A DNA stretch of 63,923 nucleotides, the filler included, from Sluysia triapertura (Eukaryota): the NCBI GenBank assembly GCA_046118255.1. It is 5 parts of 5 records of this genome, joined end to end, with 100 filler letters (N's around TTAATTAATTAA, not from the genome) between each part and the next. Parts side by side here need not be neighbours in the genome. Positions count along the whole stretch, not along the records: positions 11,781 to 23,946 come from JBJNIA010133289.1; 4 more parts are not named here. One strand, given 5' to 3'. The notes beneath the pieces were generated by a model. It searched no databases. It worked only from the letters and a program-made list of their open reading frames with translations, and was not told where the DNA came from. Shown one piece after another: positions 2,509 to 58,796 of this stretch (within the stretch, counting starts at the first letter, position 1; every line of letters starts with the position of its first letter). The position numbers were made by a program, and so were the translations under genes.

Positions 2509-3560
2509 ATGAATAAGTCAGTTTATCTTAAATTGTTTGTGCAATTTTTTCTCCAAACGATACCATTTCTATATACTGTATCTGAAAAACCGATTAGTAA
2601 TAGTCTCGTTATGCCGACTCCGCTACTTATTTTTAACGTTGTTTATGTTTTAATTTCATTGTTTTATTTTAACTCAAAATCATGCAACAATGACAAAACC
2701 ACGAAAATGATATGATTAGACTAAAATATTACAAGCATCCACCAATAGTAACAGTTCGTACTCGTTCTTTGATTATGTTCAGAGGTTGTAGTTATGTTGC
2801 AGCTGTTGCTTTAATTATAGTCAAAGATATGGATATATTTCGAATGAAGTTCTTTAATGAAGTCCATTAAACATATGGTACAGGTTTAATGGATACGGGT
2901 CTTGATAATTTTGTAATATTTATGGGTATATTTGGATCTAGTCGTCATTGGATTAGTAACAGAAGTATTCACAATAAAATGAAAGCAATGTTTTGCACAA
3001 TATATTCTTCTGTATTTTTACTGATAATTGGTTTTATTTATCAAACTATTCAAATAATTTTTGTTAATTAACAAAGAGAATTTTACGCATGGACTTTTAA
3101 CATATTTTATGTAATTTCCATTGTAAAGTTATCGGGTAATTTTATAAAATTGTTTTGTTTCAATATCATACCCTTTTGGTTCATATGTATATTTATCGGT
3201 GTTATTTTCGAAATTATTTTAACGGTTTTTGAGGTTAAGAGTAGTATAAAAACTTATAATAACCAAAAAGTTATGAATTTTTTTGAATCAAATGTGGAGT
3301 TGATTTTTTTGATTATTGGTTTGCACACGTTGTATTTTATGGGAGCTTCTATTGATCAATTTATTTTTAAAACATGTTCAAGATGTTCAGAAACAAAGAT
3401 GAAACCGACGTACCAAATGGCTTTGTCGATATTTTTTATTTCGTTTTTATTATCTCTTATATACTCACTTAATCAACATTATAATATAATAGAACCATCG
3501 TAGTGGAAACTGTGTAATTTATCTTATGATTGCATTTTTTCTGTACGATTGTAGAAATTA
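2509..3560 (+). pseudogene. PIGW: PIG-W/GWT1-like GPI inositol acyltransferase pseudogene (multi-pass membrane; stops and frameshifts)
   Basis: Collinear motifs across frames: LIMFRGCSYVAAVALIIVKDMDIF..*TYGTGLMDTG (cf. PIG-W AILAVDF..F..YGTGAMDFGVG), EFYAWTFNIFYV (cf. EYGVHWNFFFT), FFESNVELIFLIIGLHTLYFMG (cf. NANREGIISTLGY), EPS*WKLCNLSY (cf. SRRxANLxY). Confidence 0.55.
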
Positions 3561-7482: not shown

Positions 7483-7554
7483 TGGACTGACCAGGAATCG
7501 AACACAGGACCCTCGCTGCAAAGTTCGACTGCTCTACCACTGAGCTATCAGTCC
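7483..7554 (-). pseudogene. tRNA-like sequence / tRNA pseudogene with disrupted anticodon arm
   Basis: Minus strand: GGACTGA TA GCTC AGTGGTA GAGC A GTCGAACTTTGCAGCGA GGGTC CTGTG TTCGATT CCTGG TCAGTCC A. Perfect 7-bp acceptor stem, intact D-arm and A/B boxes; anticodon and T stems mispaired, so identity is uncertain (Ala-TGC or Cys-like). Confidence 0.7.
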
Positions 7555-9183
7555 CCTCTAACAGTTTTATTTTATTATTGTCAATTTTAGCAAATGGCAC
7601 TTTAAGCCTTTTTACCCCAACATCTCCGTTTGGGATCATAATCTTCAACATCTGTTCTCAAGGAACAACTACAAATTGAAAATTCCTTTTTATTTAAATT
7701 GAGTAATTTAAAACACGTTAGTTTATTTTTGTAAGGTTTTGATACTTGTAAGTATCGTACGCAAAATCCACTAAAAATCTTTTTTAAAGTTAAATGGAAC
7801 CTTATAACGGTTTCTACGCAAAATCAATTTAAAATTTATTGTAAAATAAAGAATTAACTTCAGTAGTTAATCTACGTTACAATTTTATTCCTTAAATTAT
7901 AATTATTGAATTTTTGTATAATTTTGATTAATATACATTAGTGTAAAAAGGTTTTGTTATTTTTGTATAATAAATAATTTACATAGTTTCAAAATCAAAA
8001 AATCACACGTATATCGAAAGCTTTATCAGAAGTTAATTCTGATAACATAAAATATTTATTACAAATCCTTTTCATAGGATTCACGAAAACTATTCTTTCA
8101 GTCAATACTTGAATTTATTCTTTAAAATAGCTCCAGAATTTAACTTAACTTTACTAAGCATTTAGGCACGCATTTAATCTTTAACTTTTTTGATTGCAAA
8201 AACCCAACGGCTAACCCTAACTGGTAAACCTAGTACGTTGGTGTCTCACGTTAAGATCTCTCTTTATTCTTTTATACTCTAACAATATCTTTTGTGCTGT
8301 TACTGTAATAAAGTTATTGTTTGTAGTTGGAACATGTGAAAAATAGAACATAATTAAACTGCGAAAATGAAGAAAAGTGTTCAATTGATTCTATTGAGAA
8401 CTATTTTTTGTCAAAACTATGAGATAATAAAAATAGATTTAACTATATTTAAAAATTATAAAAAGTTTTATTACATAAAATACATTGTTAGTTTTTGAAT
8501 TTGTTTAATTTTGATTTTTTAAAAGTGTATTTGTTAAGGTAATTTTAAGCTTTATAGTGTTAAAATATTTTTCTAAAATTATGATTTGTTTAACTATATT
8601 AATTTAACTACTTTAATTTTCAATTATCATTGTGCATTTTTTATATTAATTTATTTTTGTTTGAAAGTTAGTAAAATATTATGAGTTCTCTTCAGTATAA
8701 TGAAAATTACAACAATGAAGTTCTGAATCCGAATGCATTTATTCTGAATGTCCCAGTTTTAATAATATGCTGTATTTTTATACTTTACTTTACTATAAAA
8801 TTTAGGTTTTGCTGCGTTTGCATTTATTGCATGTATTATTTTTATAACAGTGTCAGTATTTTATTGGAAAAAACAGCAAGAACACAATAAAACAGATAAA
8901 CTAAATTATTATGAAAGTAATATTAAAAATTCTTATGTTGCATATCAAATGACTATATAATTTAACAGATCTCGTTTTTGATATTTTCTATTTTTATATT
9001 TATCTAATATGATGGTTTTATGTGTAGCTCAAAAATAGTTGAAGTACACTTAATACGGGGATTTATTTTTTAAAATGTGTGAATTATTATGGCTCCATAT
9101 TGCATTTATGCTTTATTTAGTATATTGAAGTTTAAGTATACATAATATGTTAAATCAAATTAATATGTATTAAAACATGAACT

Positions 9184-10419
9184 CTAAGCATGTAACCTAT
9201 TTTCGCATTGTTCTGAAAATGTTTTATATAGCATTTTCATTATACCATTTGCTAATTCACAACCACCAGAAGCTTCAATTAATTTAATAATAAACATGAT
9301 GTCATGTTTTAAAATTTCTTTTTGGAAGCGTTTACGTATGTTTTCATCAATTAATTCTCCGTCACCTTCTATCATTTTTCTAACAGTGTTTGATTTGAAA
9401 CCAATAATGAATTGGAAATAATATTTTATTAAACTCATACAGTTTATGACTATACCAAAATTGCACAATATCCATAAAGTACCGAAAATATACGAATTTA
9501 TAACATTCCATGACAAAATGCATTGTCCAATGTAAACTTGCTCATAGCCCATCACTCTTGGCCAGCGGCATAAAGTAACTACGGGAAATACATGTTCATC
9601 GTTTCTCATAAAAGCTGATACTACAGTATTCCAATTTAAACCAAAACTTTTTGACATAATTACTAATTGCAAACCAAGGCATACTACAAACAAAATTTTG
9701 ACCATTACGTACGATCGAAATAATTTTGAATGTGATTCACTTTTGACATTGAATATTCTTTGTACAAATGAAATTATCTTATTTTTGTCTTTAGAAAATT
9801 CCTGTTTCGTTATTGTAGCAAACTTGAAAAGAATGTCAGACATTCTTTTAGCTACATTACGTTTACTACTTTCGTCTTTATTTCGTACTTCAATTGCAGC
9901 GTTATTAAATGCTTCTAAATCAATTTCGGACATTTTCTTTGAACAATAATCCCACAAAATAATTGGTACATATAATATTAATGTCATACTAGGTATAATA
10001 AAAATTAACCATTGATAGTAATCTGGAAAAAGAAATTAATGAATAAATCATTTTTAAAATTGACATTTAATATTTAAAAACTTATTAAACTTACTGATTC
10101 CTTTTGTTTTCCAAGCTAATTCCCATTCTTCATTAGTTGTTGGCAGCTTTTGCTTATGTAAATTATACGTACCGGATACCCAACAATTTGCTGAAAATGT
10201 TTTACCAAAATTTATAGCATCTGATTGTATTAAACTATAACAATTCATTGGATCTGTGAAACTATGACCAAAAATGGAACCAGCTGTTAATGTTGCAAAC
10301 AGAACAAATAAGAATATATTATAAAAATCAGACCAGTCGTGCATACGCACATCATTTGTTTGAAATGTTTTTCGAATAGCGTTTATAAATTCGTTAATTG
10401 ACATTTTGTGTATTACCAT
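9184..10419 (-). CDS. inx: Innexin (gap-junction protein), 2 exons: 10419-10095 and 10022-9184, about 387 aa
   Basis: A GT-AG intron at 10094-10023 joins the two ORFs in frame and creates the innexin signature NYYQW. First loop PMNC..NCWVSGTY, second loop FPVVTLC..GQCILSWNVINSYIF, four hydrophobic segments. Confidence 0.93.
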
Positions 10420-11490
10420 TAAATTATACCTTTTTTATATTATTTGTTTTGCGTCATTTCCGTATTAAAAGTATTTCCTAATTTTTTGTCAATTTATAAA
10501 ACATTATAAGTCACTTTAAATCCAATTTTATTTGTTTAAATCATCCGGAAAGGGATTTCTGTGTCAGGCATTTTTAAGTGATCTAGCAAGACACGCGTTT
10601 CTGATAGTCATCTAAATTTAGCTTTGCTTCTAGGAAACTAGTAATTGTTTCTAATAGTGCGATTTGAGTGGTTAGTACGACCTTGTTAGGTTTTAGAGTG
10701 TTGTGTTGGTTTATTTACATTTCAGAGAACGATAATATTTTGTTAACTACAAACTATGGGAACGATAAATTATTAAAAAAATAAAGAAAATGTAATTTGT
10801 TGTACATGAATATATTTCAATTTGTATTGGTGATATTTTATTTAAGATATATCCCAAAGAAGAGGGCTCAGAAACCATGAATAAAATAGTAAAATATTGA
10901 CTGAGTAAAAGAGTAAATATTGAGCCTATCTTAGAAACGAATCTTTCGTACAGTCATATTTCGTTAACTTTTGAAAAAACTGTAAATTTAGGGTTAACAT
11001 ATTGTCAGAATGGAATAAGAGTTCCGTGGAATGAATTTTGCAACTTGGTGTTGAGTCGTCTTTATTTATAGCGACAAAGACTATGTTCTTGTGAATTTTA
11101 GAATTTTTATTATATTGATATTGTTCTAGTAACTTATATTCAATAATATTTATCTTTGGAATTAAAACTTAGAGTAACATTACGAACATAGTTAACATAG
11201 ATAGTTTCATTAGTTTGTATAAGTAGTTCACATTGGATAACCTTTAAGATATAGGCTAGAGTTTATTTCAACTTCAATACCTAGTAGTCAGAGTTTCTTT
11301 TAACTCCTATTAAGTGAAGTTTCAATAATTTATAAAATTTGTATTTTATCTTTATTATTAAGCTTTACAAGACCAAAAAGATCTGATTTTATTGACCTTA
11401 TATAATAATAAAAAGACTATTTTTTGAATATTAAATAGTAATTAAACAAATCAAATTTGTAATAAAGATAATCCGATATATAAGATTTAT

Positions 11491-11680: not shown

Positions 11681-11789
11681 NNNNNNNNNNNNNNNNNNNN
11701 NNNNNNNNNNNNNNNNNNNNNNNNTTAATTAATTAANNNNNNNNNNNNNNNNNNNNNNNNNNNNNNNNNNNNNNNNNNNNATATATATA

Positions 11790-11991
11790 TATATTGATCC
11801 AGAATATCAAAATGTCCATGTATTATGCCATTCATATGTATTGGTGCTCGTTCCACATTATAGATTTTTGTTTGCAGTGGATCCACGAAAACAATTTCCC
11901 ACGTATTAGCTCCCGTGTCAATAACAGATCGAATCCATCTATTATTAAAGCGTACATTTTGAAAAATGTGTATGTATTCCAGTTGAGACAT
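11790..11991 (-). pseudogene. Retropepsin-like aspartic protease fragment
   Basis: VRFNNRWIRSVIDTGANT fits the V-x-x-N-G-x-x-h-x-x-h-h-D-T-G-A pattern; runs into a gap. Confidence 0.5.
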
Positions 11992-12199
11992 TCATCATCA
12001 TTTTTACTTGTTTATCTATTAATGACTGAACTGAAGGCGGTTTATCACGATCCTTCATTTTTGGTTTAACTTTTAAAATTGACTTGTTAATTGTTCGGTT
12101 TCTTAATTTATATTCGTCGTTTCGTACATCAGTTCATATGTTTTTGAATCTAATTTAGTGTCAGTAATAAATTAGTGTCAGTAATTTTCATCACTTCCT

Positions 12200-13110
12200 A
12201 TGTAATTTTGGTGATTGTCAACGTTTAGTTAATTGGTATTTAATGAGTACTTCATCACCAATTTGAAAATTATGTTGCTTAGTTTTTTTATCGTATGCAT
12301 TTTTATATAAATCCTGAGAAAATTTCATCTGTAAGCCAGCGCGTTTTCATGCATCTGGTAGCCTTTCATGCATTACTGTTGCATATTCTGGTGTTTCCCA
12401 GCATTGTGATATTGGTGGTATCCAATTCAAATCTACTGGCACATTTGAATGACGTCCATACATTAAATAAAATTGAATAAAATTTGTAGCTGGATGCACC
12501 GAACTTCTATAAGCGAACAGACATGTTGCGCTATATTGATCCCAGTCTGACTGTTTATCATTAACATATGATTGTAACATGTTTATTAATGTTCTGTTAA
12601 ATCGTTCAACTAGTCCATCAGTTTGCAGATGATACGGTGATATCTAGATTCTAAGTATGTCAAATGTTTTCGCTACGTATTTAATTACATCACTAGTAAA
12701 ATTGGTACCTTGATCTGTTAATAATTTTCTTGGTGTGCCATATCTATAAATTATTTTTTCTACGATTATTTGTGCGACAGTTTCAGTTTTTTGATTTGGC
12801 ATCGTATATACGTCGGGCCACTTAGTTAAATAATCAACAAATAAAATAATATATTTATTTCCGTTAATAGTTTCTGGCAGTGGCTCAATTACGTCCATTG
12901 CTGTAAATTCCATTCATGACAATGATAGAGACATAGGTTTTAATGTCACTCTTGCCTTAATTCCTGTGTTCTTTCTTCTACAACATATTGAACAATTCTT
13001 ACACCAATTTTTAATGTTTTCTTCTAGATCTTTCCAATAGTATTTACCTTTTACTGTGGGTAGTGTTTTTCTCTTAGACAGATGTCCACCTAACTGCCCG
13101 TCAATTGCCT
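12200..13110 (-). pseudogene. Gypsy integrase (zinc finger, DDE core, C-terminal region), frameshifted
   Basis: GGHLSKRKT..YYWKDLEENIKNWCKNCSIC; AMDVIEPLPETINGNKYIILFVDYLTKW; LLTDQGTNFTS; YHLQTDGLVERFNRTL; DWDQY..LFAYRSSVH; YDKKTKQHNFQIGDEVLI. Confidence 0.95.
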
Positions 13111-13239
13111 GACTTTCATTTAATGTTCTTTCGCTAATGAATATATAATAAAAGCGGTCTCTTTATACTCTCTTTGATGTTTAATGATTTCCTTAGTGTC
13201 CTGTACTTTATGTGATATTGACATAATTTGTTTAAAATT

Positions 13240-13560
13240 AATATTTCCTTTATCATCTGCATTTGTTAAGCGTGACATACAGTCAGCGCCATTATTTTGT
13301 GAGCCTGGTATATAAATTACTTTTAAATTGAGTTCTGCTAATTTGTTAAAACACCTATTTAATCTACTAACCATATCCCTATGATTGTACATATGTGTTA
13401 TGGTTTGTCGTCTGTATATAAATAAACTTTTTGTCGTAATAGGTATTGCCTACATAGTTTCATGAATGATCTATAGCCAAACATTCTCTTTCTATTGTAG
13501 AATAATTCATTTCAGCTTTATTTGACCGTCAGCGGGCATATCCAACAACTGCTTCCAAAT
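13240..13560 (-). pseudogene. C-terminal half of Gypsy RNase H
   Basis: VVGYAR*RSNKAEMNYSTIERECLAI...TDDKP...SRLNRCFNKLAELNLKVIYIPGSQNNGADCMSRL. Confidence 0.9.
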
Positions 13561-13564
13561 TATT

Positions 13565-14490
13565 TTACATATATATTACATGTGGTGGTGGTGACGTTGG
13601 AGTAAAAGGATACAGTCCTCTTTTTTTGGCTTTCTTTAGTTACTTGATTTTCAATAAATCTTTGAATTTCTATGATTTCTTCATTTCTATTATTTTGTAT
13701 CGATTATAAAGCAATATTTTCTATTTGTTGCCTTTCTTCTGCGTGTTGTCTCTCTTTTCGTAATGCATTTATCTGTGAATTTGCATGATGGTGTAAAAGG
13801 TATTACGCTAGAAACTGATTATTAATTTCCAGGTTAATCCTGAAATTTTGTAAATTCCGACTACCAAAAATGCTTGAAAAATTATCCGTGATATTACTTT
13901 AATTATTATATACATTCCTATTAGTCCAGAAAACGCTTGTCCTAGTGTTATAAATTTCCCCCATATGTGCTTCAACGTGTCTTGTGCGTCTTTTTTAAAG
14001 TGATCAGGTCCCAATAGTAATTCCAAGTTTACTTATCCATTCTTTTCGACAGTTGCTTTGTCTGCAATTTCGGTTAATATTTTTGGGAATAATATTTCTC
14101 GCCAAGCCGCTTGAATGTCATCATTCTTATAAATGCCGGAATTAGGTATATTTTTCGTAGCTAAAAATTTTAATTTTCCCTTAAGTTCGGTCAATCCTAT
14201 AATTTCTGGAGTTTTCACCTGACTCCTCTGTGGTAATGATATCCACAAATTGTCATCTGTTCTATATTCGGTGCCATGACATTAGAACAATGCATTAATT
14301 TTGGTTTAACCTTATCGTTCGGAAAAATTACTCTTGTTACTGGTTCTAAGTATGTTTCTATTTTACCGTAGAGTATATGTAATTCGTTTGTGCACTCTTT
14401 AGTTGACCTTAATTGTACTTATAATTTTTTTACATTTATATGTGTATAGTACTTCTCACATTAATCGAGCAAATACTCCTTCGATTGTTG
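13565..14490 (-). pseudogene. env: Envelope glycoprotein, chuvirus G / gB-like (class III fusogen), C-terminal half
   Basis: EGVFARLM*EVLYTYKCK..VQLRSTKECTNELHI..YLEPVTRV..C..WISLP..NSGIYKNDD..EILFP..WGKFITLGQAFSGLIGMYIIIKVI (TM)..GLTWKLI follows the motif order of chuvirus-type glycoproteins (GEV..C, ECYNELPV, GIY, IMFP, W..F..FG..SAG..G). Confidence 0.8.
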
Positions 14491-14528
14491 TATTGTTTTT
14501 TCAGCTCCTCTGTTTTCTGATTTTCTTT

Positions 14529-14888
14529 TCCTTTAATTATATTTCGCCAACCTCCTTGTTCTTCTACCCATAATTTAGTTTTCTTATTAACAACATCTCT
14601 AACCTCATCTATTTGTTATTTGTAACCATTCTTTCCTCGTTACATTGGCATATAACGTATGCTAAAATTATTTTAAATTTTTCTTTATCTATCCCCTTAC
14701 TAGTTTGCTTATTTATCATCAACTTATATTTTTCACCATCTATAAAATCGCTAATATCTTTGTCTTTATATCTATCTTCAAATTGTCTTACTAACTTATT
14801 TATATACTAACTTATTTACTAACTTCTTATATTTATTAAAATTAGTAAACTTATCATATAAAAATGCATAAATCACTCTTTTAGTGTC
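14529..14888 (-). pseudogene. Bcl-2-like domain, frameshifted
   Basis: Reconstructed DTKRVIYAFLYDKF (BH4-like), LVNKLVRQFEDRY (BH3-like), YKLMINKQTSKGIDKEKFKIILAYVICQC (BH1 position, no NWGR), TKLWVEEQGGWRNII (BH2; WVEEQGGW at 14570-14547), in correct order and compact spacing. Confidence 0.6.
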
Positions 14889-14972
14889 TATTCGATTTCA
14901 TCATCGTTTTCGCAACCTATTTTTGATAAATAAATAGTATTTCTCACAATAGGTGTAGACATTTTATCATTT

Positions 14973-15612
14973 TCAGCTCTTCTTGGACCACCAGGTTTCC
15001 TTATCAATAGTTTCAACATGCTGATTCTTATTAACATTTAATATATAATCAGTAATTTTGTCATTTTCAACATTAATTCTTGCTTCATCATCAATATTAA
15101 TTACTTGTATGTCATCATCTTCCATTAACTGTTTTAACAACGTATGTGGGGACTCATTAATTTTTCCATTTATTTCATCTTTAATATCATCATTAATTAG
15201 ATTCTTATGTACAATTACTGCCTTTATCATTTCATTATGATCACCTAACGGGTAACCGTAGTCAATTAAAAATTCTCTAGGTTCTAAATACATGTAGTTT
15301 CACATCTACTACTGTCGGGTTATTTAACTTAAGTATTTCTATTACATATTCTGCTACTATTGTAACAAGTAATTCCATTAATACGTTTACTAATTCTTCA
15401 AGTAATACATTAATTTTCATTAAAGTTTCAGGTTGCTCTGGCTTGTAAACTAAACCTGTTTTTCTTAACAATTGTCTCGCTTTAAAACTATGTGGGTTAT
15501 CTGCCTGACTTAAATAACGTAAACACGACCTAATATTTTGTCTATTAAACAAATCTAAATTTATCTTAGAAATTATATCCAAATTTTTATCGGTATTTTT
15601 ACCTTCAGTCAA
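14973..15612 (-). pseudogene. Unknown retroelement ORF of about 210 aa, split by one frameshift
   Basis: Overlapping ORFs 15612-15277 and 15293-14973 with protein-like composition; no motif recognised. Confidence 0.5.
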
Positions 15613-15699
15613 ATCTGAGAGAAATTAAGCCCTTAAATGTTGGTTCTATTGTACTACAATCATGAATTGGTTTTTCTTATTCAGTACCCGAAATAATTA

Positions 15700-17200
15700 T
15701 TGGCTCAGTATCTGAGAGTGTGTCATTAATTGATTCCTCCTCTGAATCAGAAAAACAATCAATGTCACTTATTGTTACTATTGATTTCTCAACCACTATC
15801 CTTCGCCTATTTTCTTACAACTGTTTCAGCATATTTTCTTTCTTCTTCTAGTTGTTGAGCACTTTTAATTATCTTTGATTTTCGCTGCTTTTCCTCTAAT
15901 TGTGCCTCTTTTTTCCTTTTACCTTTCTTTTCTTTTTTCTTTCTTTCTTATTCTCATTATTATCTATCTTTGCCCTAAGAAATTCTCTTAACATCTCTTA
16001 TTCTTCATTCGTTAATCTTCTTGGATGTCTGTCATACTCTTCATCATAGTTACAATTTATTTGTCCTTCATTTCTATCCTTATTAAATCTTACTCTTCTT
16101 CGTGAAGCTTGTCTGGCATTCTATTTAACTCTTGCGTAAAAGTATTTGATCTTAACTTACTACATTTTCGGGCATAGTGTCCATGCCTTCCACAATTATG
16201 ACAAACTGTATTTCCTTCTATATTTGTTCTTGTTTTATAATTATTTTCGTTTGGTCATGCAGGACTCTTATTTCTTATAGAAAAATTATTATTATTGTTA
16301 GATTTCTTGTTGAGCAACCTTGGTAATGGCGTTGTTCATATTCTCTTGAGCTTGTATTATTCGGTTGTATTTTCTTAAATCCTCCATTGTTTCTATCAAT
16401 ATTAATATAATTTCTTCCTACATTATTTCTCTGTGTGAAAATATTCGAATTTCCTCGAAAATTATTACTGTTGCCACTATTATTGTCATTATTACTACTA
16501 AAACTATTATCTTCAAAAGAACTCATATACATACGCTTAGGGAATTCATTAGAATTATTTCCTATATAACCTATCATCTATATAACTTATATTATTTCTT
16601 CTTTCATTTCTCGTACGTTCAATGTTTTTTAATTTTTTAACTATAACCATAAATGGTAAATCGTCAATTAAACTTACATAAATTTGTAATTCGGACTTAG
16701 CCCATTTTTAAACTTATCTATTAATAATGTTGATTCCTTTCTACTCTCTGAAATTTTAGCTCTGGACGCTAAACTTTTAAGTGCACAGGCAAATTCATAA
16801 ATTATTTCCTGAGGTTTCTGTATCCTTATATTAAGCATCTTTGATAATATTTACCTATATCTTCTATAGCTATTTCCTCAGTAAAAACATTAACAAATAT
16901 ATTCCAATGGTGTTTATATTCTTCTCTTATTTCTTTATAAGTCTATATTGCTGCACCAGTTAAATAATATTGAATCCTCTTAATTTTATCTATTGCCTAT
17001 CCATTTGCTTCAGCTATGCTATCAATTTCAAAAAAAATCACAAAGATTTTCCTCGGCTCCATTAAACTTGCGCATTTCGGGAAGTAATACTATTGGCTTA
17101 ATGTTCTGAGTCAGTTGAGACATAGTCTCAAATTCTTCAAATGGAACTGGTGAGTTACTTCTTAAAGTTCTCTTAAATTTCTTAGTTTTTTCTTTATTAT
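15700..17200 (-). pseudogene. gag: gag with CCHC zinc knuckle and charged/low-complexity tail
   Basis: MRKFNGAEENLCDFFEIDSIAEANG capsid-like start; Asn-rich linker; CHNCGRHGHYARKC (CX2CX4HX4C) at 16203-16162; K/E/R-rich segment downstream. Confidence 0.85.
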
Positions 17201-18220
17201 TATTATTACTATCTATTTTTAAAACTTAAACGTTAATGTCTATCAATAAAATTCAACGTAAACAAAAATCAAATTCAACTTAATGTAAACTTAAATAATA
17301 AACTTATCAAGTAATCAAGTAATCTCAAACAATAAAAATTACTTTGTAAACATGAAAATATTAAACTTTGCTTCTTGAACTAAAAAAATTATCTTATTTT
17401 CTAAAAATTGCTTTCTTTTCTAAAATATTATTTTCTTTCCTGAAATCTTGTCTTGTTAAAAATTTATTCTGTTTTCTTCATCTAAAATCTCAACTATTTA
17501 TATTAATTAAATCGTGGCCATTTTGAATCTTACTTGTATTATTCAAATTGATTAGAATAAACGATATTTACAAAAATATTGAAATTGTTATATTAAAATT
17601 AAATAAAAATTCTTAAAATTAATGTTTATTTTTTTAAATTTATTTTTTAGGTTAAAATTTGTATTTTGTTAAAATTAAAAATTCAAAAATAGTTAAATTA
17701 ACATTCTATTAAAATTTATTTTATTTTGTTATATAATAAAAATAATTAATTTAATAAAATAAGATATACAATAATTTAATAAAATAAAATATACAAAATT
17801 TTATATACACAAATCAAATCGCATAAATTAAATAATCAAATTTTGCCTCACCAGTATGCAAACATAAAAATGTAAAACCAAAAGAGTGACTTGTAACATT
17901 TATTAGCAGAATAATGAATATGTTAAACATTCTTGCAAAACAAGATGACGAATTGCAGTATATGACTATTAACAATGGTGATTAAAAAATGGCGGATTTA
18001 TGATTTAACTGCAGCTATTTGTATAAGACAACAGCCAATCATTTTATCCAATCTCACTACTGGCTGAAATGGTTTCTTTTTTTTATTCTATTAATATAGA
18101 TTGTTTTTTGCATTTGTGAACAATTAAAGTATATTGATTTATGATAGTTTTTAGCTTAATCATAAACCCTTAGTAAATTATACATTAATGCTGAAATTTA
18201 GTAATATACTGTTTGGATAT

Positions 18221-18360
18221 AGGCCTAAGGTGTCATGATGGTAGTAGTGACATAATAAAATAAAATTGCTAGAATGGGGCTGATAGCGCAGCGAGAGGTC
18301 CCGGGTTCGATCCCAGGTCTAACAATACGATAAATAAATAAAGATTTAGATCACCAAAAA
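18221..18360 (+). repeat. Second, internally deleted copy of the tRNA-like repeat at 7.43-7.61 kb
   Basis: GGGGCTGATAGC..GCAGCGAGAGGTCCCGGGTTCGATCCC with shared 5' flank (TGAC-ATAATAAAATAAAA-T-G-TAGA) and 3' GTCTAACA. Confidence 0.7.
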
Positions 18361-21300
18361 TTGATATAAAATGTTAAAGCAATTTTTGTAGAATTAAAAT
18401 AAGATCCTCAATCTGAGGTTAAGTAATTCAGCAAGTAGATTTAGAAAGTAAATAGTTACATTACACACTTAAATCGTTTACTTATAGTTACAGGTACTCC
18501 CACTCTAGGTCATAATTAGTATACTGTAACCGGGCCGTGCTAAAAATTTATTTAGCCATAGGTTAACAATGAAGAATACCACAGAAATATCAAAAAACAT
18601 TTAAATAATGATTTCATATTTTGTCATTTCAAAACCGAGCATGTGACTTTTAATGGATTCATGTAATAATTATTTGTACAGTTTTTTTGCGAAAGCATTT
18701 GTGAAATGAGGTAGCCATTTATATGATTACGAAATCAATCAGCAAAATATATATATTGTTTCATTGATGAGAATATATGTTTTACCTAAGTGAACAACTG
18801 GTCCCTACTTTGTCTTTGCAATCTCGTTGTAATAGAAACTAAGTATTTTCTCCAATAAAACAAATGATTTTGCATACATTATACATATTTTTGATTATAT
18901 ATTGCTTTTACCTGCAATTATAAATATTCTGAAATCAAAAAGCAAATAAATTGAGATTTAGAAGGTGATTTTGAAAACGAATGAATTAAAAATTAGTTAA
19001 ACTATTCACATCATACCAAAACCTTTATTATTTTATTATTTATATTACTATTATTATTCATATCCAAATAAAATCCACGTAAAAAAATGCCAAGATGTAT
19101 CATGTCAAAAATATCAAACGAATTTATATTCTTAATCTTGATTAAATAACTGTAGTTTTTAAAAATATATTTTATAACACTGATTCATTTCTTTGTTATT
19201 GGGTTAAAAAATGCAAAAATTTGAAAAAGCACTTTACTCATATCTGAGTAGATTTACAAAACAATCTTTTTATATTATATTTTTAATAAATGAAAATGGT
19301 AGCTTAAAATTATAATTATTTATAATATTCTTTCAACGGTATTATAAATATAGTTAGAAATTATAAATTATGATTAGAAATTAACAAAAACATAAAATAA
19401 AATTAGTAAATCAATTTAAAATAAAACAAAATTGAATGGAAATGTCAATATCGAAAAATTTTTAAAATCATTTCTTTTATAACAGTGCTAGTGAAACGAA
19501 ATATGTATGTGAAAATTAAGTGCAGTAGTAAAAGTGAAATCAGCGAGTAATTTTTTTGTGGAAAAGGAGTTCCTAATTAATGATGATTGATTGGAGTTGC
19601 TGTTAATTATAAATTGGATGATATGATAGTAATTATTTAATTAAAAGTGTACAATATGTAGTTGTATGCGAAAATTTTTTTCAACAAATAATAAATTTTA
19701 CAATAATTTTAATAAACAAAAATGTTTTTTTTAATTTTTTGGCATTAATTTTATAATTTTTATTACCCTTTTTTTATGGATTTACTTTGAAATTCCAAAT
19801 TTAACCTTTTTATGCGAGCTTGTGTCATCTTTAACGTTTTATTATGTCGTTTTTTTGGTATAATAATAGTTCAACTAAATCCAAAGATTGTTAGCTTAAT
19901 AACTAACTCATTACTAACTTTACGTATGTTAATGAATTTCTAGAGCCAATATCCTATTTGATAAAAACAATTATTGTACCGATTCATTGAAATTTATGAT
20001 TTTCTGAGAAGTTTATTTATGAAATGTGAAAATTTATTAATAATAATAATAATATATTAATTTATATTGCCCTCATATCTACCGTGAAAGTACTCAAAAG
20101 CGCTTAAGGTAAATCATTCACCATAATATTTCTGAAACAGGAAGAACTTTGCTTTTTTCTTAAATATTTCATAATCTTCCAGCGATTTGACATTCTCTGG
20201 TATCTGGTTGTATATTTTTGAGATTACTTTAAAACACATTATAATTAAAAAGGAATTTTTTTATTAGCTTCTTTAGTTCAGTATTATTCCTTTTATATAT
20301 ACATATTGTATTCATTTCTTTTAATACCTTTAACCACCTTGTTACCTTCTACCACAAAGTTAACATTATCTTAATAAAATAGAAAAATAACCATTTAATA
20401 GCACAATAATAAAAGATTGTGTAAGAATAAAGACATAACAGAAAGAATATTATTCAATACGAAAGAGAAAGTTTGTGTTAATTTTTGTAATTTTATTTAT
20501 ATTTACATTATTATTAACATTATTTAATTTTATTCATCTATTACAAATATCATTATTAAAATTAATTTTATCATCATTATTATTACCTATTGTAATCATT
20601 ACTTTGACACCATTTTTATTATCATTAGTTACCATTTTTCACTTAGTAACAAAATTTTATGTCATTATCTGTCATCAGTAGACAGCTTAATTTAACGTAT
20701 TGTGTTTACTGTCTATTGATGACAGACACTCACTGAATCGTATGCATATCGTATTTTATGGTGTAATTTTTGATTGGTCACCCAATCAATTTTGATATTG
20801 GCATTACAAAAACTAAAAATTAACATAACATTAAAAAACAGAATTTCAAATTAAAAAAGAATTACTCGACTCACTTTTACAAATATTAGAAAACTTAATG
20901 CTTACTTTACTGAATCCATTTTATTCACTAATATATAAAATGATCGGTAATTCATTGTTAATTATGGTTTTAGAGTATCACCGAAAATTATAAACTTTAT
21001 GAATTGTGAAATTAATGAAATCTATGTTAGATTAGTACAAGAAGTTTATCTGTACGATTTTATCCACCTCAGTCGAAAGAATTTACCATGGTTTGTAAAA
21101 GTCATACCATCAGGTTTAAATCATATTTGTTTTTTAAAATACAAAATGATAAAGAAAGATAAAAGTATAGATAGATTAATTGTAACAGTTTATGGTCAAG
21201 TTATAGAAATACCTATTAATATATTTCCAATTAGTTATTACAAATATGATAGACCTTGTTACAGTTGTCATGACAAATAAAGTAGTAACATTAAGGACAG

Positions 21301-24236: not shown

Positions 24237-26639
24237 GAAAATAATTAATGAATTTTATTGACTTTTATCGTGATGAAGTGTACTTTTCGGTAACTAGGTG
24301 CTTAATTCTATTTTAATTCATTTTAGTAACAAATTTATAACAAGTATATATAGAAATAAATACTAATTTTAACTAAAATAAAAAATTGCCAAAAACTTCT
24401 TATTAGTTTTAACAACTAAAATGTAAAAATCCATTAAATGGCGACAATTCTCTCAGCAAGCAACTTACGTTTGCAATGGTCAATTTTCCGTTTAAAATTA
24501 GCAACTCTATTTTATTTTCAATTGTAAGTAAATAAAAATATGATAATTTTTGTTTTAGTAATATTATTTTAATCGAAATTATTGTTTTTTATCCAAATCT
24601 ATTTCAATAATGAAAAGATATTATATTCTACGAAAATGTAATCTATATATTTCTGGGTGATCAAAAATTTTACATATTTAAACACATATTTAGAACATTC
24701 TGTCATTCGAATGACTTACCTATGCAAATATTCATCTAAATTGTTTTTTATTGCTTAAAATATTATTGATGCAACTGGATAATTATTATGTTTCATTTTC
24801 TTATGTTCCAAACTGAGTTCATTAGAAATAAATTTTAGCATAATGTATATTGAGTAAATATTTCTCTTAATTAAATTAAAATTTTTAATTGAAATAAATG
24901 TTATTTCCAAAGACCGCTGTAATATTAAAACAAGATATTGAAATATTCAATAGCACAAATAGTTCAAAATTTATTTAATTGTCACTTATAAAGTGCTTAT
25001 TTAATATTACAATAATTTGAATTGTTTTATAAGTTCCATACTTTTTAAAATTTATCAAGTTTTATAAAAAAGCATATTTTTATCATTATGATGATGTTCA
25101 CATGTGTTCTAAATTAAGGATTCATTCGATTATTATCCCCTAAAGATAAACCAAAAGCCAAGATAATATATTTATGGAAAATAGCTACTATGGCATGTAA
25201 ATAAAGAAAATTAGATGTTATTAAAATTTATGGGATGCATTGTCCGCCTTAAAACTCCAAAATATTGAACTAATACAATAAACTAGACACTAATAAATTA
25301 ATATTAGGAGAAATTGGAAATGTAGATGTAGGGAAATCACATCGAAATATCCATACTTCATCACATAAAAACATTTCACATATACAAAGATCATTAAACA
25401 AACTACTAAACTCATTCAAAAATCAAACATAACCATTGTATATAATAATCATGAACTACAGCTATTGTTATTATAATTCAAATCGTATTAAACAATATAT
25501 ATAATAATTATAGTCATTATTGTTGTATAATATGATTAGCAAATAATAATCTTTATAATAACTTTTGTAATAAATTTCATAGTAGCAGCACCAACATCAT
25601 TATTCTAAATTGTACAATAATTACGTTGTTCTTATCATTATTATTTCTTTTATCCTTATTATCAATCTTTCTTCTTATCCTTTCAACTTCTCCAGTTTAT
25701 GTATTTATATATATTTATGTATATATTTATTTACGTGTTGATCTACTTATGATTATAATTCAACAATTGATTTATTCAAAATGGATTTTGTTCGTAATAA
25801 CAACGATTGCGACATGAATGCGCTTTTACCACTTAATCGCTTATATTTTAATTTTACAATAGCACAAAATATCTTATCAATGACAATTATTGTTCATTGT
25901 TTACAACATGGAACACAGCCAGATTTATGCTATTTCAAAGTTATCAAATAGTTAATAAACTGCAATCTGCAAATAATCATGTAAACACCACAAGTTGTAC
26001 AATATTGGTTTGTGATGAATTTTATGGTAAAGAATTAAATAAAATTACTAATGAAATGCAGAATTCTAATCAGCTAATATTGATACCATGCACTGAAAAC
26101 AAATTTGCTAAAATTTATATCATTAGAGCGAGACTTGCAAAAATATCTTATCACAGCAATTAAAACAATTGAGCTGCAAATCAAGATCATTATGTATAAA
26201 TGTATTTCTAGTATTACCAAACTATCCAACATCTCTACTATAATTCTAAATAGTAGTATTGAAATGAAATCCAAGTCAAATTTCTGTCACGCTTGTTTAT
26301 CAATAAACTCTTATTATTATATTAATTTACCAGTGGCAAATATGAGTTTATTAACTTCAATTTATAATAAAGAGGCTAGTCTTAAGAAGATAGAATATTT
26401 AGATATATTTGAAAACATGCTCATTCTTCAAAGTGCTTTTCAAAAGCTCTAAATTATGGATATTCTAATTTTAATAAGCAAATGAATTTAACAATTTTGA
26501 AGGCATATTTCGTAATGCATCTTTCAATTATTCTTACGTATTTGATTATAATAATATATTTATTTGTCAATTCAATCAATGTTTTAAAAAAGAAATTGGC
26601 AGTATAAGTTCAAACGGGAAAATTCGGTTTCCTAAACTT

Positions 26640-26800
26640 AATGTTATTTCAATTTATTACATTTTTGTAATGCAACAACCGATGAACAATTATAGTGGCT
26701 TTTGTGTAGATTTACTAGAAGAAATAAGCAAAATTGCTGGGTTCAAATACATTTTAAAAATATTTTCTGCTTCAAAACCATATTGGACAACCGGATTTAT
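26640..26800 (+). pseudogene. Ionotropic glutamate receptor S1 ligand-binding fragment
   Basis: FVMQQPMNNYSGFCVDLLEEISKIAGFKYILKI matches the iGluR Y-x-G-[FY]-C-[IV]-D-L-L-x-E-I...GF-x-Y motif; no pore or S2 exons seen downstream. Confidence 0.7.
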
Positions 26801-26895
26801 TTATACATTATCTAAAATAAATTGAAATAAAATTATTTTGATTTAAAAAAATCAATTTTTTGTACGTACTCATGGTAAAACTTAGACAACCAAAA

Positions 26896-48308: not shown

Positions 48309-49099
48309 TATAGTTCACATACGCATATTTATTTTTGTATATGTATAAAATTGTAAGAAATTAAATATCCATTTATTTGTAATTGTTTTTAAATCCAAAT
48401 AAGTGATATTCGCTGCATCTTGTTTCTGAAACAGAATATAAGGCGTCTAAAAAATTAATCAGGCAATTTTTAGAAAGTTTATAAATTGAAATTTGAACTA
48501 AAACTTCAATTTCCGATTTAACCAAAAAGGAAATAAGATTTTAGTTGGATAATACAGAATTTTTATACAGAAGATGAAATACTATATCTATTATGACTGT
48601 GTACTTAGTAACCTAAAGGCATGAAAAGAATTTGTTATTAAAGATGATTTGGTTAATTATTAATTATCACTTAATAATTATTAAATAGTTATTTTAATAT
48701 CGTAATCTTATTTTAGTTAATTATATTGAAGAATCAAATGAAATATATGAAAATACAGAAACTTGTGAAATCACAAAAGAATCTTTTAACAAATCATCTA
48801 GTTCCTTATCTAGTGGTCGTAATAGCAATCCATATGGTGCGCAATCTAGAAACTTCGATAGCAACCCATATGATGCACAATCTAGAAACTTCAATAGCAA
48901 TCCATATGATGCACAATCTAGAAACTTCAATAGCAATCCATACGATGCACAATCTAGAAACTTCAATAACAACCCATATGGTATATCATCATCTAGGAAT
49001 TATAACAACCCATATAGTACATTGCCTAGTGTATATAATAATGAAGATAATAACAGTAACAAACAATATAGTTACAATAATAACCGATATACTGGTTAG
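47847..49099 (+). CDS. 3' exons (47847-48012, 48060-48242, 48717-49099) of a low-complexity Asn/Ser/Tyr-rich protein; 5' end not located
   Basis: GT-AG junctions are phase-compatible; the spliced frame is open to TAG at 49097-49099 and includes (NSNPYDAQSRNF)n. Confidence 0.7.
48821..49018 (+). repeat. 36-bp coding tandem repeat, about 5.5 copies
   Basis: AATAGCAATCCATATGATGCACAATCTAGAAACTTC units. Confidence 0.9.
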
Positions 49100-52000: not shown

Positions 52001-54544
52001 ATTCGAAATACTTTTTATGCATCTAATTCATATATAAATATTTGTGATTTTGTAATTATGTAATTTTAGGATATCCATCACATTCTGGTATTTGAAATCT
52101 GGGGTAGTGTGTTTATAATGTTCAGTGACTGTAATATTTGTCCAATCATCTTTTGAATATATAAAATTGTTATTTTATAATTACTACGAGTTATATATGT
52201 ATTGAAACGAGTACATTAAAGTAGAGATAAAATAATAAATATCTAAGAAAAGGAAAATAGGTATGAGAATGTATAATTAATTTAATTTATAAAATACAAT
52301 AATTTATTTGCAACACACGAATTATTTAGAATTAGTTTATTTTTATGTACATGAATGAATACACGTATGCAATAAAGAATGGAGTGTTAGATGCCTCTTA
52401 TGAAATTATTAGATGTTAATTTTATTAATAATTCTTGTGCGCAACAAACATTAATTTTTAACCAACAAAATAAAAAAGCAACTGGTAATTCCTTAATTTT
52501 TGCTAATGAAACTGTTTCATCAAAGACATTAAATTATTCAAATTCGAATATAAGAGAAATAACTATGGTATTTTTGTCATCTATTGAGTTGAAAATACTA
52601 TAAAAAAATATTCAATGGACAAATAAAATAGAATTTAATTATGATTATTTAACTTAAGAAAATAAAAAAGTTGAAATTTCTAAAATGTCAAACCTTATTA
52701 CAAAAACGAGGAAATAGTATGAACAAATATTATCCAAATATTAGTAAAGTAAAGTGTGTAGAAATTAGCTTATACTCAGATTAAGTTACTAAACAAATTG
52801 ATAGTATGAAGTAGAATAATAAGTCGCAATTTTTCCTCATAGGGTTTCATCTTTAGTAATGGAGTTTAAATAAAGTGAATATTGAAATGTACAAATGCAT
52901 AAATATCTTTTAAACAGGAATTATTTAAACAAATAATAATTCAAATATTTTTAAACTTGTGTTTAAAAAATTTTTAAGTCTTATAATACCTTAAAGGCCT
53001 TTAGATCATTGAAGTGTTTTGTAAACTCTTAAGCATTTGAGAATTACTAGAATACAATCTGTGTAAATAATTGTGAAGTTATTAATTGTAGTGGTAAACC
53101 TCATAAGTTAAGATTAAAACAAACCTTCTTAAAACAACAATACTCACAACAACATCTTTCAAACATAAACATCCAACAATAAATTAATCCATATCTTAAC
53201 ATTCCCAACTCAATAAACTCTTACANNNNNNNNNNNNNNNNNNNNNNNNNNNNNNNNNNNNNNNNNNNNTTAATTAATTAANNNNNNNNNNNNNNNNNNN
53301 NNNNNNNNNNNNNNNNNNNNNNNNNATGAAATGCAAGATTGATACTATTCCCGAAAATAATAATAATAAGTAAAACATTTGATAAATTACTACTAATTTT
53401 TAAATAAGTTATTTATATTTATATATATTCTCATCTTTAATTTAATTAATCAATACAATCGTTGCTTAGATATATACATACATTTCCAATAAAAAATGTA
53501 ATTTGTCTATAATTTTCCAGTACGATACATTTTTTATATAAATCAATATGTAAAATAATTAAAATATTAAAATTTGTATTTTGTTATAAATCAATTAAGC
53601 AAAATTAATTTATTTACCTTGTGCTATAAAAATATTATTTAACTGTACAGTATTTAGTTTTTTACCTTTGTCATTTAATATTGGCAGAGTTATTTTTCAA
53701 AGTGAAAACTTTCAAGAGAAAAAGCACATACTTTGGCAGTAATTCTACCTTATTTGTAAATCTGGTTCCGAGAAAAATTTATGCAAATTTAATTCACTCT
53801 AAATATATTCAAATTTGGATCGAATTTCTTTACTTTGAATATTTAGTAAATAAAATGCAAACTTTTTTTATAAAATACTTATTTTTGTCAAAGAATAATT
53901 AAGTGATACCAAACATTTGCCGACGCTCATCAAAATGCTGATGTTCCTCAGAATATTTTTTGGGAATATCTAATTTAATACCTACAAAATGTAGTTTTAA
54001 GAATATATTTTGTCTTTTTTGATAATTTAATATTTCAATAAATTGATATTTTAATCAATTAATAAATCAATTCGTAACAGTTCATAAATTAAGATTTTAT
54101 TTCTGTTTTTTGTGATTTAATATTTAAACAATTAATTAAAAATACATTTTGTAATCGTTTTATTTTTAAAACTAAAGATACATTTTGTCACAATTTAATT
54201 AAATAATTATGTAGTAATTTATAAAGTCTAATAAAGTTTATTCTAATGGTAATAGTAAATCTTTAATCTATAATAAATTTAATTAAAATAGTAATAAATT
54301 TGTTTTAATTGTAAAAAATGCGTAGTAATAAATTTGTAATAAATATATCTAATAAAAATATAATAATAAAATGCGGATAAAATGCATCGCTGATTAATAC
54401 GTAAATTGAAAAAAAGCAATAAAGACTCAAAAAGAAAAATTTTGAGTCAAAATAATGTTAGCCTGCAGTCACATTGATTTACAACAGGATTACGCGAATT
54501 TTTAGGCCAGTTCAATTTAGTGACAAAACAATAATTCAGTTTTA

Positions 54545-55860
54545 ATTGACTTCAGCATTATTGGGCACTGAAGATTGTCCTGAATCAAGATGAAATAGAG
54601 TCAAAATAAAACTTATAAGAGTATTAAATGTTTATCAAGAAAAAATTTTAGTTACAACATTGGTTAGAGAATGTTTAGTAAAAATGTCTGTAGTTATTTT
54701 GTATTGCGGACATCACAGTCACTCTTCGATAATTGATATATCAAATGCATTAAAACCATTTAAGATATTACCAAACAATTGCCGTGACGCTTTCCAAACT
54801 GGATATATTAGTTTAAACGAAGGAGACAAATTAAGGATTAAAAATAATGAGAAAATAATTTATAACGTCAGAACCGCTGGTAATTTATTAATATATGGTA
54901 CTTATGAAAGAGGTTTAATAGAATATGAATGAAAAATTTACCATAACGTTGTAGCTCAAGAAACCTATGTAGTAAGTTTAAAATCTTTTAACGAAAGTTT
55001 TAATTTAGAAAAAGGTACTATGATGTCTATACCATTTTGAAAAAGTGATCAAACAAGTTGTGATACCGGTGAATCTATTTTGATATACGAATTGGAAAAT
55101 TATCAGTGTCAATTAATATTTTTGAAACAAATTAAATTTCGGGATTCATGTATCAAAATGAAGATGAATTGGCAATAGAATAAATAAATAAAAACAAATT
55201 TATAACGATAATATAGATATACCGGAAAGAAAAAGACTTAATGAAATGGAAACTTCGGCAATTTTAATGGCAAATAAAGAAGAAGAGGGACTAATATTTA
55301 TATCAAAAAGTCAGTAATCAGATCTGGGCAAAAGATTACAGAAACAAATTACCAAGAGATGTATTTTACCGAAAAACCAATACTTCAAGCCAAGAAAGGA
55401 ATAGATACAAAAAATTTACAATTAAATACATATTTTAACAATATAATTGATTTTTATTTCATTTAGGACTTAGGTCATTAGAAAACGTTTACCAGCTATG
55501 ATAGCTAGAGATTGTCAATTAAATAAAGAAATACTAAGAACTAAATTAACCCAGATATAGTAGTACCATTACTTCCATTGATGGTGAAGTTTTATATACA
55601 TACAAATGTAGAAAAGTAGAAGTACAAATAAGACAAGAAAGCGAATGTACTAATGAATTAGCAGTAATATACAATAATCAAAATACTTATTTAGAACCAG
55701 TTAATAGAATCATTATGCCAACTAATAAACTTAAACCAAAAACTTTACACTGTCCTAATGAAATATCTCCCGAATACAAAATTGATGATATCTTTACCAC
55801 ATAGAATCCAAGTTAAAACTCCAGAATGATTCACCTCTAACTATCTTAAAACCTAACTTG
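54545..55860 (+). pseudogene. env: Second chuvirus G / gB-like envelope glycoprotein pseudogene (ectodomain)
   Basis: LLGTEDCP..RECLVKMSVVILYCGHHSHSSII (cf. chuvirus-type YCGMHSH)..CRDAFQTG..GEVLYTYKCRKVEVQIRQESECTNELAVIY..YLEPVNRII..LKPKTLHC; directly alignable with 14.2-14.5 kb. Confidence 0.8.
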
Positions 55861-58413
55861 ATCCCAAACATTCTAAAGTGTGAGAAAATGAAATAAAATG
55901 AAAAGACACAATGTAATGCGAAGGAACAACGACAGTTAAATGAAAGATGTATCGTTTGTGGTTTTTGCTTCATAGTATGATAACGAATTTCTTTAAAGTT
56001 ATTTAAAATTTATTTGAAAATTGTGTAATGGTTGTGGTTATAAGTGAAATGGAAAGTGTTAAACATAATTTATTGAAATTTATTGAAATTTTGTAAATTG
56101 AAAACAAGTTCTATGCATTAGATTTAAGTTTGAAATACTTGTTGCAAAGGTTAAAGTTGTTTTAATTTTAAATGATGATTGCGAAATAAATCTTAGTGTA
56201 TTGTAATATTGTTACTGGTAAGTGTTACTATGAATATGTATATGTGAAGTGTAATTTAATTGGTGTAGTTGGTTGGAGGTTTTGATGTAGATGGTATATG
56301 TTTCGAAAAATGTTTGTAAGAGTTGTTCGACAAAAATATTATTTTTTTAGGGTTTATGAAGGTTTCTTTTATGGTTGTAATTTGTTTGTTGAAATATTTA
56401 ATGTATGAATGTAGTGAAGTGTTTGGGATAAAATGTGGAAGCCTGTTATGCGATAGGTGGTTGAGATATTAGTTGATTTGTTGGTGTTTATGATGATGTA
56501 TTTGTAGAATAAAGGTATGGCTGTTGAGAAAATTGTATTTTAATGAAATTAGATTTATGATTGTTGTATTTAAGTTTAAGTTATTGATGTTGACCACTAC
56601 AGGAGTAGTGCGCTAGAACTTGATGAAATATTTATAGACTTGTTCAATAATAGTAGAAATAGTTTTATTAGGAACGGTAGCAGATCCAGTATATTGATTG
56701 GCTAACAATTAATTTATATAGCAATTGTTGAATTAGGAGACAATAATGTGTTAACAGAAAAATCTGAGTGGTTGCATTTAATGAAACAAGCTCTTACTGT
56801 ATAGATATTACAAGCACTGTCAATATGAAACGTTTTCTAAAAAAATAGTAATTAAAGAAAATATTTAAAATAAGAATAACCTTGGATTCAGCGATCAATC
56901 CCTTTCGTCATCAGAAAGTATTTCCTTCTAAAAGGTCGGAGAAGGTGAGTCATGACAGAATTATAATCGATGTAAAAAAAACTCTGATGCTATCAATGTG
57001 AAAATGGTACATTTATAGTATAAAATGTTTAGTGATGGTTGTTTAGACCTTTTGAAACAAATCTTGTTCAAGATGATTGAAATATATCAAATAAACTTCA
57101 AATTTCTTGATCGAGTGTATTTCGGAGTTTGAAAGTGCTAGGAATTACTAATAAGTGTCATGCGTAAATATAATTCAATTTAGATAAAAATCAAAGAAAA
57201 ATAAAATTTAGATATAATATAATAATACAAGATTTTTAAAAGGATTATATATAAAAGGATATATTATTGTAACAAAAATGGAAAAGTAATGATTTGGTAC
57301 ATACATTGTCGGTGGAATTTTGATTCCTGGTTATGGGTTATCAGTCTATCATAACTGTATTGTAAAATATGGTAAACTTAAAGCTTTTTTTGAACTTTAA
57401 TTTTTTTCTAAATTGATTTTATACGTGATTTAACTCTCAATATTATAAAAAGAAATTCAAGTATAGTTTGTTTCAGCTCCGGAAAGTAAAACAACTTACT
57501 AATTTTTTAAAATCAAAATGATGTTTTCAAAATGGCTGATATCCAGACACTAATTAACATCAATTAAAATTATCGTAAATTGCAAGAATAAAAAAATAGA
57601 ATTGTGCTTTTATAATCGCAAGATACTACTTCGCATTCAATCAGTGTTTTCAAAGTGTGTACGAAATTATTTTATTAATTTAAAATAAAATTATTATTTC
57701 TACTTTACTTACTTTATTGAGTAAGTAATTTTTATGAAATTTTTTAAAATTAAAGTTATTAGTAAGTAGATGATATTTAGTAAATAATTGTTTATTTTTT
57801 AATAATATTATGGTTTTATGATTATATTTCTTCAAACGGGGTTATGAAGCGAACCTAACAGTATAAATTCCATAAAAGTTGTGAATCTGAAATATTATTT
57901 GAAATCCATTAAGTTATTTAATCCGAATCTAAAAAAATCGCGAAAATATTAAACAGTTTCTTCCAATCTGCTGAAGGTGCGCTCCATTAGAAATTGAAAT
58001 GGCTTAATTTTTAAAAAGGGAGAAAAAATTGTGGTTTAAAACAATAATCAATTGAAGATTTTATTTAGAAATTAAAAATCGAAAACCGTTCTTCAATAGC
58101 TCATTCGGGATTCAAAAAGGTATTGGGCTACTTTTGAAATTTTTTTGTATAATGTTACTTTTATTTGCTAACCACAAAGTGTTCTGTTTTTGAGTTTTCA
58201 CTACTAGTGTAATATTTTGTGCTCTAAAATATGATACATTCAGATACTTTAACACTTCGTTTTATTAACTTTATGAAGCCCAATTTTTCATGAAAAAACA
58301 AGAAGGGATTTTCTAATATTTCATCAAAAAATTATGTTTCCGAGTTCGAACGTGTTATATTACTTAAAAAGTTAAATAATATAATTAGAATGATTTGCTT
58401 TGTTCATTTTTAG

Positions 58414-58796
58414 GTATTGATGTAATGTGGACAGGTCCTAAAGTCATTTCTAAAAGTATTTCAGAATCCAGTATTGAAGAATTGTTTCTGGTTCTTCAGC
58501 GTTATCCTGTTATCTGGGATAATCTTCATGCTAACGATTATGATCAAAAGCGTCTCTTTCTGGGTCCTTATTGTGGACGAAGTGGTAGTTTGTTAAATAA
58601 ACTTCGTGGAGTGATGACAAATCCAAACTGTGAATTTGAAGCTAATTTTATTCCTGTTTACACAATGGCACATTGGTTTAACAGTAATTTGAAATGCATT
58701 GATAAACAAGACGAATCCAATAAGGAACAAAATGAATATGATCCAAAAAAAGCACTGGATTCTGCAATTCAATCATGGATGAATCATTTGTATAAG
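58414..58796 (+). CDS. OGA: O-GlcNAcase (GH84) internal exon
   Basis: [54 protein letters not shown], bounded by a TTTTTAG acceptor and an AAG|GTTAGT donor. Confidence 0.93.

Follow-up and report, generated by a model that had tools for sequence, protein, structure and literature searches.

A probable Bcl-2-like domain in a dead, internally deleted gag-env-pol Gypsy element that probably belongs to the planarian Burro type

Can a short and broken stretch of minus-strand coding sequence, lying between the gag and env genes of a Gypsy-type retroelement, be assigned to the Bcl-2 family, and would such a domain be a new acquisition for an element of this kind? A preliminary description of the locus had proposed both, and we followed it up in the window, i.e., the whole stretch of 63,923 nucleotides that was analyzed. 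We hold with good confidence that the segment represents a likely Bcl-2-like domain in a dead, internally deleted, and repeated gag-env-pol Gypsy element, itself likely of the planarian Burro type. Sequence features of the window indicate that the element likely comes from a planarian flatworm.

The segment and its resemblance to the Bcl-2 family

The preliminary description had read a peptide from the minus strand after the repair of two frameshifts, and we found this peptide in place, distributed over three stop-free pieces between 14,439 and 14,897 (pieces A to C; Table 1). Piece B is read in a different frame from that common to pieces A and C, so that the segment contains two frame breaks, and an exact 14-nt repeat sits at the first of them; the preliminary description had put one frameshift down to a short duplication. 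Piece A has no ATG and has stops directly upstream; given that it is preceded by a further piece in another frame, a third frame break is probably present. The segment is likely to have been one domain within a long polyprotein and not the stand-alone cargo gene that had been envisaged.

A read-through of pieces B and C (a mutated copy, read in parts, with an X inserted at the frame break) recovered the Bcl-2 family (PF00452) as its sole match among 24,736 Pfam families (E = 0.14; 13.1 bits versus a cutoff, the gathering score, of 31.4). The match aligns residues 51 to 86 of the read-through with profile positions 65 to 100, i.e., the expected C-terminal third, and PF00452 was matched by none of the 59 other pieces of the window. 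The pattern W-x4-GGW in piece C, which we take to be that of the BH2 motif of the Bcl-2 family, occurs nowhere else in the six frames of the whole window. When the window was shuffled 200 times, a BH2-like pattern turned up in none of the shuffles, a control that is weakened by the pattern having been composed with the sequence already in view. By this pattern and by its weak match to the C-terminal third of the profile, the segment resembles the Bcl-2 family, viral Bcl-2 proteins included, from which it differs in its sub-cutoff score and in having neither NWGR nor a BH4 match. NWGR is the BH1 motif of the family, and its absence, pointed out earlier, holds for piece B.

In Pfam, the read-through of pieces A and B matched DUF325 and Tfb2_C and neither Bcl-2 nor BH4; searched separately, pieces A, B, and C gave no Bcl-2 match, and piece A alone gave no BH4 match. 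PDB sequence searches with pieces B and C and the read-throughs returned no Bcl-2 protein, and a homologue search with piece B yielded 13 candidates, none of them at E up to 1. Piece B recovered only short unnamed phage clusters of low recognition in the Atlas and nothing in a metagenome scan, and the scans of IMG/VR were likewise without a match. Two matches among 1.84 billion representatives, to an fn3-repeat protein and a tandem-repeat protein, both highly repetitive, were judged to be due to chance.

These comparisons weakly indicate a Bcl-2 identity. The Bcl-2-like cargo suggested earlier is probably a correct reading; for the Bcl-2 fold itself the segment is a candidate, with a Pfam score that lies below the cutoff. 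A rival reading takes the segment to be a real polyprotein domain of the element family with a fold other than that of Bcl-2, in which case the BH2-like motif would be coincidental. The sub-threshold score, the missing BH4 and NWGR, and the lack of any PDB or database homologue all speak for it, as do weak matches of similar size, to unrelated families at E up to 0.15, in 9 of the 32 stop-free pieces covered by the Pfam scan of the element region. We nevertheless consider it quite improbable, since the sole match is to the very family that had been named beforehand and falls on the expected part of the profile and since the position agrees with the published site of the Burro BCL2 motif (PMC6431247, in its available part).

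Anatomy of the host element

On the minus strand throughout, the features run in the order gag (with CCHC), charged linker, ORF-X, Bcl-2-like segment, env, RNase H tail, and integrase (Table 1), and the composition is uniform from 11.8 to 17.2 kb, the segment included. This domain order bears out the initial proposal in that the element is of the Gypsy type, carries env, and has a likely Bcl-2-like domain placed between its gag and env.

Table 1. Positions in the window of the features of the element and of the second env copy
Feature	Positions	Strand	Basis and remarks
Decayed gag-like region	16,558-17,225	-	Four stop-free pieces in three frames; lies upstream of the zinc knuckle, and summed contig depth is high
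Single CCHC zinc knuckle of gag	16,093-16,254	-	PF00098, E 4.9e-5, 23.7 bits, cutoff 20.8
Charged and acidic linker pieces	15,680-16,120	-	Sequence; no Pfam family better than E 0.2
ORF-X	14,976-15,624	-	Two pieces, 115 aa and 108 aa; repeated in the run
Piece ahead of Bcl-2-like segment	14,891-15,037	-	Frame differs from that of piece A
Bcl-2-like piece A	14,799-14,897	-	33 aa, DTKRVIYAFLYDKF...; BH4-like by the comparison made in the preliminary description
Bcl-2-like piece B	14,612-14,806	-	65 aa, ...LVRQFEDRY...KEKFKIILAYVICQC...; BH3-like to central-helix region by eye
Bcl-2-like piece C	14,439-14,615 (listed part 14,529-14,615)	-	59 aa, ...KLWVEEQGGWRNII...; BH2-like W-x4-GGW at 14,570
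env, C-terminal part, gB/chuvirus type	13,560-14,523	-	PF24664 in three pieces; begins mid-gene at ~14,480-14,520
RNase H tail and Gypsy-type integrase (H2C2, rve, C-terminal part)	12,221-13,560	-	Pfam; RNase H by eye
Second env fragment, N-terminal two-thirds	54,460-55,826	+	PF24664 positions 62-441; decayed, gB/chuvirus type

The upstream gag-like region is one that we infer, as its pieces have no Pfam gag match. ORF-X found no relative in Pfam, in the homologue search, or in the Atlas; its single-sequence model is all-helical at low confidence (pLDDT 52.6) and had no Foldseek match at E up to 0.001. In env, pieces between 13,811 and 14,418 match the Monjiviricetes fusion glycoprotein (PF24664; E = 1.2e-7) over profile positions 388 to 588 of 653; the first ~370 of these 653 positions are missing, and the gene starts midway, directly after the segment. 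The stretch from ~13,560 to 13,120, read by eye from its motifs, is presumably an RNase H tail, and it is followed by an integrase with matches to Integrase_H2C2 (PF17921; E = 3.1e-13) and rve (PF00665; E = 1.2e-10) at 12,647 to 13,162. The element bears the marks of Ty3/gypsy, namely, a gag with CCHC and an RNase H tail followed by an integrase (H2C2 and rve), and also that of the GAG-ENV-POL errantiviruses, a gB-type env between the CCHC knuckle and the integrase. None of the 32 pieces matched RT, and PR-RT is missing from its expected place; no LTR pair was found within the window, in which a gap at 11,681 to 11,780 limits the 3' side. A stop-free minus-strand piece downstream of the integrase (11,800 to 11,991), which adjoins this assembly gap, has no protease match in Pfam; we take its DTGA motif to be protease-like, and the piece is possibly a displaced or nested fragment.

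The relic spans ~5 kb (12.2 to 17.2 kb) and shows numerous breaks along with two or more deletions. A zero-difference contig, from a run that may be of the source sample, spans the env/RNase H junction (13,486 to 13,923), which is thus not a scaffolding join. A second env copy (Table 1), beside which no gag or pol was seen, shares 68% identity over 267 nt with 14,204 to 14,468, and the DNA likeness of the 14-kb env to it begins at ~14,523 to 14,500; hence, at least ~1 kb of env is missing, which makes the boundary between the segment and env a deletion junction. With env following at that junction, no membrane anchor is visible in the segment. A homologue search with the second env piece gave no match, and a strongly G/T-skewed stretch (56,000 to 56,600) directly follows this fragment. 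The possibility that the segment is itself diverged env was rejected, as ordinary env sequence occupies that place in the second copy. Compared with the upstream part of that copy, the segment scored 87 (mean of 59.8 and maximum of 87.5 in 100 shuffles), and, this score being close to the shuffle maximum, the rejection rests mainly on the protein comparison.

The element is a dead, internally deleted Ty3/gypsy copy in which every ORF is broken and both env and pol are truncated, and this copy cannot make a Bcl-2-like protein. The suggestion of an infectious element with a functional modulator of cell death is therefore unsupported as far as this copy is concerned.

Repetition of the segment in the genome

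From one sequencing run, possibly of the source sample, 7,852 contigs were aligned on 11,810 to 19,009, of which 6,736 were <95% alike. Summed contig depth over the segment reached 56,127 and 12,844 in its two bins, with a depth of 14 to 22 for the contigs of this copy itself and of 8.4 for the flank at 18,770 to 19,009; the summed values come from a single run and do not equal copy numbers. Variant sites in the segment at 14,594, 14,599, 14,606, and 14,717 were represented by 55, 43, 28, and 15 contigs, respectively. Given so many diverged sister contigs (15 to 55 variant contigs per listed site), the segment is repeated, as the preliminary description would have it, and is not a one-off chance insertion at a single locus. 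Single contigs link 14,611/14,824, 14,944/15,108, 15,291/15,386, 15,739/15,815, 15,868/16,057, and 16,077/16,164 (among the joints listed, 15 of 191); no sister contig among these listed joints extends from the segment as far as env. Depth falls to 1,124 at 14,930 to 15,169 and to 486 at 16,370 to 16,609. A metagenome scan with the integrase recovered 11 loci with 33 to 78% identity over short stretches, none of which match the env, ORF-X, or Bcl-2-like pieces.

These data bear on the idea of a chance patchwork, in which a retrocopy of a host Bcl-2 gene, or else some repeat of unrelated origin, would have come to lie between fragments of different elements. Such an origin would sit well with the abrupt transitions from the segment to env and from env to RNase H, the lack of an LTR pair, the two depth dips, and the isolated DTG piece, protease-like, that lies past the integrase; but the confinement to one strand, the uniform composition throughout, the many variant contigs over the segment, the collinear links to the upstream pieces, and an order that agrees with published architecture (available parts of PMC13524379 and PMC6431247) make it very unlikely.

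Elsewhere in the window, a tRNA-like repeat, likely a tRNA-derived SINE, is present at 7,483 to 7,609 and 18,221 to 18,330; the two sites match at 78%, depth in the run is raised over the repeat, and the ARAGORN call carries an undefined anticodon.

Relation to Burro, possible roles, and surroundings

The arrangement described here has already been published. The Burro/GYPSM1 elements of planarians are LTR retrotransposons of giant size and gypsy-like type (Jurka 2007 and Grohme 2018, via PMC6431247), and the available part of PMC6431247 describes a BCL2-like motif in the same position in Burro-2, -3, and -4, credited to Grohme 2018, so that the cargo is not the novelty for which it had first been taken. 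According to the same account, Burro ORF1 (4,873 to 5,140 aa) comprises gag, two or three CCHC knuckles, and BIR, ankyrin, MATH, and SUMO-like domains; env, which has matches to mononegavirus fusion proteins, lies in frame between BCL2 and the protease; and Dugesia japonica contains decaying, frameshifted Burro fragments (PMC6431247).

Like Burro, as known from published descriptions, the present element combines a gag with CCHC, a likely BCL2-like motif upstream of env, an env before pol that matches fusion proteins of the mononegavirus type, and apparent abundance in the genome. The place of the motif upstream of env fits the Burro type, its putative Bcl-2 identity being that suggested by PF00452 at E = 0.14. 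Unlike Burro, which exceeds 30 kb and has LTRs and one in-frame polyprotein, it is a ~5-kb relic without LTRs; it has one CCHC knuckle as opposed to two or three; and ~750 codons lead from the start of gag to the Bcl-2-like segment as opposed to the 4,873 to 5,140 aa of Burro ORF1. No match to the BIR, RING, ankyrin, MATH, SUMO-like, or dUTPase domains of Burro was found among the 32 pieces, for which deletion or decay may be responsible.

The GAG-ENV-POL order with a gB-type env is known from Platyhelminthes, Nematoda, and Bryozoa, in elements that are not monophyletic, and six Schmidtea elements, Smed_errantivirus_1-6, are listed in Platyhelminthes group C1a (PMC13524379); the available part of that source has no mention of Bcl-2 or Burro. 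Our element shares the gene order and env class of group C1a but differs from these intact copies (PMC13524379, same part) in being dead. The second env copy, and not the 14-kb env, additionally has env motifs in common with the C1a errantiviruses. VYQE, AFQT, and TGES are all present in it, and among the rows listed from the env alignment in the accessible portion of PMC13524379, those with VYQE (5/5) and TGES (3/3) are from Schmidtea, as are 2 of the 4 with AFQT, the other two being aphid rows with the motif at another position. These matches to Schmidtea rows and the AT-rich composition of the window, which fits the >70% A/T of Schmidtea (excerpted text of PMC11410931), make it very unlikely that the host is not a planarian and that a nematode or bryozoan gag-env-pol lineage, of the non-monophyletic kinds noted in PMC13524379, captured Bcl-2 independently.

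Burro1, a planarian Gypsy element with an apoptosis-regulator domain, as the present element also likely is, is reported to be expanded in Geoplanidae and Dugesiidae; its B-IAP (RING and BIR) has an anti-apoptotic function, and stem cells of planarians are reportedly protected by this IAP cargo (Lee 2026 Dev Cell, via the available part of PMC13465017). Unlike the Bcl-2-like domain, B-IAP is of the IAP class, acts on caspases, and has a reported function; our literature search found no functional test of the Burro Bcl-2-like domain. The copy in the window is likely a new dead member of the known Burro kind, and with it a further genome joins the known range of this little-studied arrangement, in which one Gypsy element has both env and a Bcl-2-like domain. 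A dead copy alone adds little; it would carry more weight if intact sisters formed a compact family with Bcl-2 and without IAP.

If the segment is a Burro-type Bcl-2-like domain, as we prefer, an intact relative would, going by the Burro architecture, make one long polyprotein that is cut by the element's own protease. By analogy with Bcl-2 biology, the freed domain might bind host pro-death proteins of the Bcl-2 family, which could damp mitochondrial apoptosis in the cells expressing the element, and it may act together with the IAP-type cargo that Burro1 is reported to carry. The missing NWGR would also be compatible with a decoy or other role.

A tentative and rather doubtful extension is that the copy belongs to a compact, very abundant Burro-related family that combines the Bcl-2-like domain with a helical domain of the ORF-X type and is devoid of IAP, ankyrin, and MATH. 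The span of ~750 codons from gag to Bcl-2 would, with a full env and pol, give a coding region estimated at ~8.5 kb, which may come close to that of Smed_errantivirus_1-4, provided that 3-kb extensions are included in the 14.5 to 14.9 kb listed for them (PMC13524379, available part); it is this proximity that makes the case for a compact family. Were such a family to exist, Bcl-2 would be the core cargo against cell death in the gag-env-pol retroviruses of planarians, and possibly the older one, and it could be tested apart from the IAP module.

As to the surroundings, a host innexin gene lies on the minus strand at 9,184 to 10,434 (PF00876; E = 1.2e-25), ~1.3 kb past the 3' end of the element in window coordinates and across the 11,681 to 11,780 gap. 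Pfam matches mark further host exons for GWT1 (3,072 to 3,503), a glutamate-receptor ligand-binding domain (26,478 to 26,825), and NAGidase (58,389 to 58,826), and a 36-nt tandem repeat in five copies is located within an open frame at 48,785 to 49,000.
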